This document shows, in pieces, positions 35,110-35,842 of a DNA stretch of 64,000 nt. Where the stretch lies: NCBI RefSeq assembly GCF_000026545.1, contig NC_011601.1. One strand, 5' to 3'. This DNA is from Escherichia coli O127:H6 str. E2348/69. Lineage in GTDB: Bacteria; Pseudomonadota; Gammaproteobacteria; Enterobacterales; Enterobacteriaceae. The translations under genes and the position numbers were made by a program. Each line of letters starts with the position of its first letter. Position 1 is the first letter of the stretch. The notes under the pieces are model-generated. The model ran no database searches, had not been told where the DNA came from, and worked only from the letters and a program-made list of their open reading frames with translations.

Positions 35110-35842
35110 AATCGATCCGCCATAATCCCTGTAAGCAATCGACGCGTGTTACAACTGCCACCGAACGATGTTCAGCGGATTCTTCCATCCGGGATAAGAA
35201 GGAAATGGCAAATACGACCAGCGCACAGAGCATTGAGCGCCAATGGGGAAGGCTTAGTGAAAACGGGTAGTAATGTTGTCATCATCAGCATTCCTGGCCG
35301 TAAATGAAACACGCATACTCATAAGTGAAATCAATTAAATACTAACATTTATATTCATGTTGTCTATTTGATTGCCATCAACTTGTGATACATCGCGATG
35401 TTCTTCCGTTCGCTGGTGTTTTTTCCAAAAATATTCTGTACAGGTTCACAGATTCTGTTGCACAGGTTTCCGTAACAGGGAAACCTGATGACTATCACAT
35501 AGCGTTATTATCGCCTGATGTGCGAATAAATACCGAATATAAAATAATTTATTCTGAAAAGATGATAGATGATAAAGGCTCGTGGGTTTAATAAAATATT
35601 CCCTAAAAGACTCATTTAAAACAACAAAATAAGATAAAGATATTAATTCAGAGTTTATCTTAGGATAAATATTTATTTAATAGCATTAACTCACCGCTAA
35701 AAGTTGATCCCCATAACGCTAAATCCGATTATAGTGAAGTTACTTTTTTTAATTGATGGCATCTTATAGACATATTTAACTAACTGAAAAGACGAATCAT
35801 ATGTTTTTCGAAGTGTAGCAGAAAATATATATGGGGTTTAAA

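Follow-up and report, generated by a model that had tools for sequence, protein, structure and literature searches.

The short AT-rich yhiI-yhiM interval of Escherichia coli E2348/69 as a probable native control region of the genus Escherichia

The window analyzed here is a stretch of 64,000 nucleotides from Escherichia coli O127:H6 strain E2348/69 (contig NC_011601.1), and the region of interest is the interval between its genes yhiI and yhiM. The first of these (34042..35109, minus strand), identified as an open reading frame and by RefSeq annotation, encodes a membrane-fusion protein of the HlyD family and is the first large gene of the yhiY-yhiI-rbbA-yhhJ unit. The second (35843..36895, plus strand) encodes a DUF2776 inner-membrane protein and is present as an allele, here called type A, which starts with ATG and is completely linked to the short spacer. 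On the 3' side of yhiM lies yhiN (36982-38175, minus strand), followed by pitA. Between the yhiI start at 35109 and the yhiM ATG at 35843 there are 733 bp, with a GC content of 35.7% versus 51.5% for the window as a whole; the flanking genes have 55-59% GC, with yhiM itself also low at 43%. Inside the spacer the GC content is 26-36% across 35400-35800 and 26-28% around 35500-35800. Both yhiJ and yhiL are absent; the corresponding interval of the K-12 strain, at 4238 bp, includes yhiY, yhiJ and a frameshifted yhiL. The original prediction of an AT-rich spacer of about 730 bp lacking yhiJ and yhiL is thus borne out. The hairpin and the small open reading frame that it placed in the spacer also exist, but it overlooked yhiY, a gene of 37 codons and the sole RefSeq feature inside the 733-bp interval.

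The gene yhiY (35172..35285, minus strand) encodes a small protein that matches the Pfam family PF23514 from residue 1 to residue 37 of its 37 (E = 8.6e-28; 96.2 bits, with a cut-off of 27), and it is a candidate upstream open reading frame (uORF) of yhiI. In K-12, start-site ribosome profiling confirmed yhiY (Weaver et al. 2019; 10.1101/511675), and a list of candidate uORFs assigns it to yhiI (Adams et al. 2021; 10.1101/2020.07.18.207399). Two K-12 RNA 3' ends precede the yhiI open reading frame, by 43 and 65 nt, and were flagged as Rho-dependent and 'uORF' (10.1101/2020.07.18.207399). Carried over through an ungapped 530-bp alignment of the window with K-12, these two ends would fall at about 35152 and 35174 in the E2348/69 strain, the former in the yhiY-yhiI intergenic leader (35110..35171, minus strand) and the latter at the yhiY stop codon.

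The start of yhiY, comprising its first 11 or so codons, the ribosome-binding region and the proximal 5' leader, forms a nearly invariant block (35251..35327, minus strand) that is identical in K-12. In five Escherichia taxa with yhiI genes that are 4.5-8% different, its 25-nt bins from 35260 to 35309 show 100% invariance. The synonymous sites of yhiY are also invariant in this block, suggesting constraint at the level of the nucleotide sequence or the RNA. Folding of the yhiY leader gave no structure beyond that of shuffled sequences (z-scores of +1.35 and -0.73), so the invariance is not explained by an obvious stable fold. That the start of yhiY and its leader are invariant at the nucleotide level is modestly new.

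A consensus scan placed a promoter-like site for yhiY-yhiI at 35339..35366 on the minus strand, with a -35 hexamer TAGACA (35366..35361), a 16-nt spacer containing TG and a -10 hexamer TAGTAT (35344..35339); transcription is predicted to start near 35332. The scan returned two promoter-like sites where 3.7 were expected and is by itself not evidence; the minus-strand site gains its weight exclusively from its conservation in the outgroups and from the K-12 5' end. Its counterpart in K-12, TAGACA-16-TACTAT, is located 7 nt upstream of the 5' end of the yhiI 5'-UTR construct in the primer list of Adams et al. Over 35110-35327 the window is 95-100% identical to the K-12 yhiY-yhiI leader and has the same promoter hexamers. 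The two differ in length: in K-12 the stretch from the promoter to the conserved leader block is longer by about 105 nt, whereas the short leader is found in the window and in all the outgroups. The termination and translation data are those of K-12. A search of Rfam at permissive thresholds with the spacer and with the K-12 leader insert matched no family; for the spacer, Rfam 15 gave two chance-level matches to eukaryotic snoRNAs, with E-values of 7.9 and 9.9.

On the right-hand side, the yhiM upstream region (35635..35842, plus strand) contains blocks that are conserved in both haplotypes and in all species compared, and for the type A allele it would have a regulatory function. In K-12, the yhiM promoter has been mapped, with ATGAAA as its -35 and TTCAAT as its -10 element and with transcription starting 22 nt before the GTG codon (PMC6604978). 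The K-12 promoter region is bound by H-NS and by RcsB/GadE, the latter shifting a fragment that contains it (PMC2984483). By homology, the promoter in the window would consist of CTGAAA (35784-35789) and TTCGAA (35807-35812), with a predicted start near 35820. About 210 bp upstream of yhiM align with the K-12 promoter, which is H-NS-repressed and RcsB/GadE- and GadX-dependent. Shared features are a TTAGGATAAAT(A/T)TTT(A/G)TTT element and the -35 element (C/A)TGAAA, and the region is AT-rich in the window, as expected of an H-NS target. The homology is weak, however, at about 60-65% identity over these last 210 bp. The -10 element and the start codon differ (TTCGAA and ATG in the window versus TTCAAT and GTG in K-12), as does the Shine-Dalgarno region, and upstream of about 35620 homology ends because K-12 has yhiL there. 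A GAD-box-like block, TTAGGATAAATATTTATTTAA at 35660-35680, is kept in both haplotypes and in every species compared. With the GadE consensus and GAD box as quoted in PMC4918353, a GadE site was defined as a stretch that precedes an acid-resistance gene and matches TTAGGAttTTgTTATTTAAa or the ChIP-exo motif TTARGAWWWWAAATA. Positions 35660-35674 match the GadE motif with three mismatches, and matches of this quality number 37 in the window versus 21 expected, so that the motif match is not significant by itself.

Between these two conserved sides, about 35435-35634 is the least conserved stretch of the spacer, with 0-40% invariant columns in most bins. It contains the hairpin (35463..35487), most of a 68-codon open reading frame (35385..35591, plus strand) and a 7-mer repeat (AGATGAT/ATGATAA; 35560..35574) present in 2.1 copies according to TRF. 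The repeat can expand: E. coli DCE7 carries 21 perfect copies, which make up its 133 extra bp.

The sequence that differs in kind between E2348/69 and K-12 extends beyond the spacer. From the blastn breakpoints, it spans 35328..36986 and its K-12 counterpart is a segment of 5.4 kb (6228-11619 of the K-12 locus sequence, L002), which takes the place of about 1.66 kb. To the left, the region from yhhJ through yhiI and yhiY to about 35327-35339 is 96.7% identical to K-12 (yhiI itself 96.6%), and to the right the identity is back at 97.7% from 36987, in the last codons of yhiN. In between, the promoter block at 35331-35367 recurs in K-12, where it directly adjoins the yhiJ stop codon, and about 250 bp of the short form (35369-35622) are without a K-12 counterpart. 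The yhiJ-yhiL segment of K-12 has a GC content of 35.7%. No remnant of yhiJ or yhiL was found in the spacer by tblastn with YhiJ against 35110-35842 (best E-values 2.4 and 4.9) or by tblastx against the K-12 interval, which recovered the shared flanking blocks and nothing else. Each form thus holds sequence that is missing from the other, and as far as sequence comparison goes the K-12 state is not a plain insertion: the two forms are alternative haplotypes. The divergence of the yhiM gene itself, which was likewise overlooked in the original prediction, amounts to 80% nucleotide identity and 90-91% amino-acid identity between the window and K-12.

Among 5426 complete E. coli genomes, the full 733-bp spacer is found in 1122, and 272 bp specific to the short form in 1128. 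A type A yhiM of at least 95% identity is present in 1128 genomes, 1127 of these at 99% or more and one at 95-99%. The K-12 yhiJ-yhiL segment occurs in 4288 (about 79%). No genome has both forms, and between them the two cover 5416 of the 5426 genomes. E. coli is therefore dimorphic at yhiI-yhiM, with the short form in about a fifth of the genomes (~21%) and always accompanied by type A yhiM. By name, short-form strains include E2348/69, CFT073, LF82, APEC O1:K1:H7 and isolates of ST95 and ST131, which we take to belong to phylogroup B2. The short-form E. coli sequences are at least 98.5% identical overall. Throughout the K-type region, insertions of IS1 and IS5 are frequent, and in strain E423 yhiJ-yhiL is deleted beside an IS1, the K-type yhiM being retained. 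Presence or absence of yhiJ and yhiL is ordinary accessory-genome variation; a literature search for a polymorphism at yhiJ, yhiL or DUF4049 found nothing on it.

The original prediction had proposed aligning the interval across genomes. For the sister species, exact peptide patterns were scanned in one genome per species, returning six Escherichia loci; E. fergusonii, E. marmotae and E. ruysiae are not among the six, and their absence is uninformative. In four of the lineages, E. albertii, E. whittamii, Escherichia sp. E1V33 and 'E. coli E69', yhiI is followed by a collinear spacer of 670-733 bp and then by yhiM. In the right part, these spacers are 66-81% identical to the window. The yhiM genes fall into two clades. 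Type A groups the window with the same four lineages, at 88-97% nucleotide identity, and type K groups K-12 with Escherichia sp. MOD1-EC7003, at about 80% identity to every type A sequence. In MOD1-EC7003, yhiM is 92% identical to that of K-12 and yhiJ fragments are also present, suggesting that the K-type haplotype is itself old.

Synonymous divergence, calculated by the Nei-Gojobori method, separates the two genes flanking the spacer. Between the window and K-12, dS is 1.36 for yhiM (dN/dS 0.046) versus 0.125 for yhiI. Between the window and E. albertii, E. whittamii or E1V33, dS is 0.33-0.38 for yhiM and 0.18-0.36 for yhiI. Divergence of type A yhiM thus tracks that of yhiI, as would be the case if the short haplotype were vertically inherited Escherichia DNA. 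The K-type yhiM is more diverged (dS 1.36) than the split between E. coli and E. albertii (dS 0.3-0.4). This contrast between yhiM and yhiI, together with the low GC content of yhiJ and yhiL, suggests that the K-12 form is a replaced or imported segment. As a donor genus for the K-type yhiM, none was found: homologues are 79-99% identical and of Escherichia type, and the next ones, in unrelated phyla, are at most 61% identical.

On the basis of the four outgroup genomes, the short form is probably the normal, older arrangement of the genus. The K-12 haplotype, either much older or of foreign origin, would have taken its place, the direction of change being less certain inside E. coli proper. 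The short-form lineage could, for instance, have re-acquired the short form by recombination, and mosaicism does occur at the locus, as in the E. coli-labelled strain SCPM-O-B-8794 yhiM is 97% identical to the window but yhiN only 91%. An ancestral state relative to an insertion in K-12 had been among the options of the original prediction; the ancestral part is supported by the four lineages sharing the short spacer, and the plain insertion is not. K-12 as the derived or replaced form, and the depth of the linked yhiM dimorphism, are modestly new.

We consider it likely that the interval is not collapsed but is a native Escherichia divergent control region, that the K-12 form is a replacement haplotype, and that the hairpin and open reading frame are incidental. 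In the K-12-type lineage, a segment of 5.4 kb would have replaced about 1.66 kb, bringing in yhiJ, yhiL, a yhiY leader about 105 nt longer, another yhiM promoter and the diverged yhiM. Homologous recombination is the probable mechanism, one breakpoint falling in the yhiY leader and the other at the 3' end of yhiN. In the short form, a putative sigma-70-type promoter (35366..35339) would drive the short leader and the yhiY uORF, and Rho-dependent premature termination at and just after yhiY, as shown in K-12, may gate expression of yhiI-rbbA-yhhJ. The AT-rich right half would be the promoter of the acid-stress gene yhiM, silenced by H-NS and activated by GadE/RcsB and GadX as has been demonstrated with the K-12 allele. 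Weakly constrained filler would make up the middle (about 35435-35634), where hairpin, open reading frame and 7-mer are incidental. The start, termination and regulator sites in this scheme are all carried over from K-12, which has another yhiM promoter sequence and another length of yhiY leader.

A further proposal, which we regard as possible but rather unlikely, is that the segment from the yhiY leader to yhiN is an old and functionally meaningful dimorphism of Escherichia, maintained for a long time and perhaps trans-species. With a dS of about 1.4, the two yhiM alleles stand as far apart as genes of separate genera do, and each is tied to its own promoter sequence, its own length of yhiY leader and the presence or absence of yhiJ and yhiL.

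That the middle of the spacer instead holds an element specific to the short form appears improbable. In this proposal the 25-bp palindrome would be the site of a dimeric regulator or mark a small RNA, or the 68-codon open reading frame would encode a micro-protein arisen de novo. The inverted repeat at 35463..35487, CAGGTTTCC-N7-GGAAACCTG, has a 7-nt loop and a perfect stem of 9 bp (35463-35471 pairing with 35479-35487), not of 10 bp as first described. With a folding energy of -15.4 kcal/mol it is more stable than its shuffles (z = -3.7). It is also statistically unusual in a spacer of 733 bp, an equal stem being found in about 3-5% of spacer shuffles (p about 0.03-0.05). It is intact in all four short-form E. 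coli sequences compared, and its location, some 130 bp before the predicted start of yhiY transcription, is a plausible one for a regulator. Comparable stems occur at about 16 loci in the 64-kb window versus about 2.6 expected; the hairpin is mildly non-random but not exceptional. Its invariance within E. coli is uninformative given the near-identity of the short-form sequences. Outside them, a 39-nt gap removes the hairpin in E. whittamii and E69, and in E. albertii and E1V33 only 7 of the 9 pairs are left, with no compensating substitution; none of the columns in the bin 35460-35484 is invariant (0%). Nor does the hairpin have an Rfam match or a terminator-like tail, and from this comparison we regard it as lineage-specific and as probably incidental.

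We also considered the hairpin as an intrinsic (Rho-independent) terminator and rejected this. After the stem the sequence reads ATGACTAT on the plus strand and TGCAACAG on the minus strand, without a T-tract either way, and it is positioned between diverging units, both of which are transcribed away from it. A promoter and terminator scan found no terminator-like site in 35000-36000.

The 68-codon open reading frame exists as predicted, beginning with GTG, and is intact in E2348/69, CFT073 and O170:H18. No Shine-Dalgarno sequence precedes its GTG, and no feature is annotated under it by the NCBI pipeline in any of 40 sampled RefSeq genomes. In four E. coli sequences it contains three substitutions, all of them amino-acid-changing and none synonymous. 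In EcPF18, which belongs to the 98.5%-identity class and matches over 273 rather than 272 bp, a 1-nt insertion shifts the frame and alters the C-terminus. Frameshifts or stop codons interrupt the frame in E1V33, E. albertii, E. whittamii and E69, that is, in all four outgroups, as well as in E. coli DCE7; lack of conservation is one of the outcomes that the original prediction had named as counting against its own reading. We judge the frame, from these patterns, to be a non-coding and incidental one.

Even less probable is that the AT-rich middle and its open reading frame are what is left of different cargo, a decayed horizontally acquired gene or mobile element. The very low GC content, the orphan status of the 68-residue product and a locus that is clearly a hotspot of recombination and insertion would all fit this idea. 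The AT-richness is, however, equally explained by promoter DNA bound by H-NS. Searches with blastn using 35369-35842 gave no match in 72,556 plasmids or 50,697 phage records. No recognizable resemblance had been noticed for the open reading frame, and this holds: it has no match in Pfam, and among 5.8 billion proteins it retrieves five clusters, all from E. coli and 88-97% identical, so that its homologues are near-identical E. coli copies only. There are no flanking or meaningful terminal repeats and no open reading frame for a transposase or integrase, and the region aligns collinearly from one Escherichia species to the next, with conserved blocks interspersed as they would be in regulatory DNA. 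The least probable explanation, which we consider close to negligible, is the 'collapsed' interval or deletion scar of the original prediction, the leftover of a K-12-like ancestor that lost yhiJ and yhiL: such deletions do occur, as E423 and the abundant IS1 and IS5 insertions of the K-type region attest, but this genuine IS1 derivative looks quite unlike the window, the roughly 250 bp at 35369-35622 resemble neither K-12 DNA nor the YhiJ and YhiL proteins, the collinear spacer is common to four other Escherichia lineages, and a deletion cannot produce a linked yhiM that is a different and far older allele.

The native control region and its K-12 replacement resemble accessory-gene islets, or alternative haplotypes at a fixed chromosomal site, in which a segment is exchanged through homologous recombination in the core genes on either side. 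There are two mutually exclusive forms (1128 versus 4288 genomes), with sharp breakpoints in conserved flanks, a variable part of low GC content and IS elements accumulating in the longer form. Unlike in such islets, the variable segment here includes a diverged copy of a gene common to both forms, and no integrase, tRNA or att-like repeats are found at yhiI-yhiM. The presence of yhiM in both forms, at a dS of 1.36, points to allelic replacement plus cargo and not to a simple insertion.

The functional pieces of the interval, yhiY, the yhiI leader and the yhiM promoter, are all already described in K-12, and the result is a correction more than a discovery: the absence of yhiJ and yhiL in strains of the E2348/69 type would be the genus-wide arrangement and not a loss, K-12 being the unusual one. 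Regulatory results obtained in K-12, for yhiM (H-NS, GadE/RcsB, GadX and the transcription start) and for the yhiY-yhiI leader, may not transfer to about 21% of E. coli. These strains, which include major extraintestinal pathogens, have another promoter sequence, a leader shorter by 105 nt and a YhiM protein that is 9-10% different. If the functional dimorphism is true, the perfect palindrome might act as a regulator site peculiar to the short haplotype, and short-form lineages could have a differently wired acid-stress and GABA-export response and a different control of yhiI-rbbA.

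The two deeply diverged yhiM alleles of E. coli (35843-36895 in the window and 10239-11291 in L002, the K-12 locus) are only 80% identical in nucleotide sequence and 90-91% in amino-acid sequence, with a dS of 1.36 and a dN/dS of 0.046; their start codons also differ, ATG in one and GTG in the other. For the neighbouring genes, yhiI and yhiN, identity between the window and K-12 is about 97%. The split between the yhiM alleles is deeper than the divergence of E. coli from E. albertii. In E. coli SCPM-O-B-8794 (L006, 252-2584), yhiM is 97% identical to that of the window, but the adjoining yhiN just 91%, which suggests that the yhiM/yhiN boundary of this strain is a recombination mosaic.

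The 86-bp gap between yhiM and yhiN in the window contains a long perfect inverted repeat at approximately 36908-36935. Its nested 9-bp matches have loops of 9, 7 and 5 nucleotides; therefore, the stem must be at least 11 bp long. The repeat is probably a bidirectional terminator shared by the convergent yhiM and yhiN genes. The corresponding gap in K-12 measures 314 bp and is unrelated in sequence.

On the minus strand, a block of about 75 nucleotides (35251-35327) comprises the start codons of the small gene yhiY, its ribosome-binding region and the proximal part of the leader. Across five Escherichia taxa, and in K-12 as well, this block shows essentially no variation, even at synonymous sites, which points to constraint at the nucleotide level. 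Folding predictions for this block returned no stable structure (z-scores of +1.35 and −0.73). The K-12-type yhiY/yhiI leader has about 105 additional nucleotides between the conserved leader block and the promoter (L002, 6228-6332), taking the place of 35328-35339 of the window. This insert is missing from the window and from every outgroup, and an Rfam search with it gave no match.

Within the spacer, the ATGATAA 7-mer is present in two copies in the window (35560-35574). In E. coli DCE7 (L005, 2953-3100) it has expanded to a perfect tandem array of 21, which makes the DCE7 spacer 133 bp longer.

IS elements are active at the yhiI-yhiM site (loci L003, L004 and L015). IS5 and IS1 break up yhiJ and yhiL in one strain, IS1 occupies the position of the deleted yhiJ-yhiL in strain E423, and in strain 2547, which has the short form lacking both genes, the spacer is cut short by an IS1 that also truncates yhiM at its 5' end. 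In the Escherichia sp. MOD1-EC7003 lineage (L009, 1-7000), genes for a GntR regulator, a PTS EIIC component, an FGGY sugar kinase and a class II aldolase replace yhhJ-rbbA-yhiI, with a K-type yhiM and short yhiJ fragments retained.

Across E. coli, the yhiJ and yhiL genes are intact, frameshifted or IS-disrupted, and the segment containing them is 92.8% to 100% identical to that of K-12. The diversity of this K-12-type segment within the species is far above that of the short form, for which identity is at least 98.5%.
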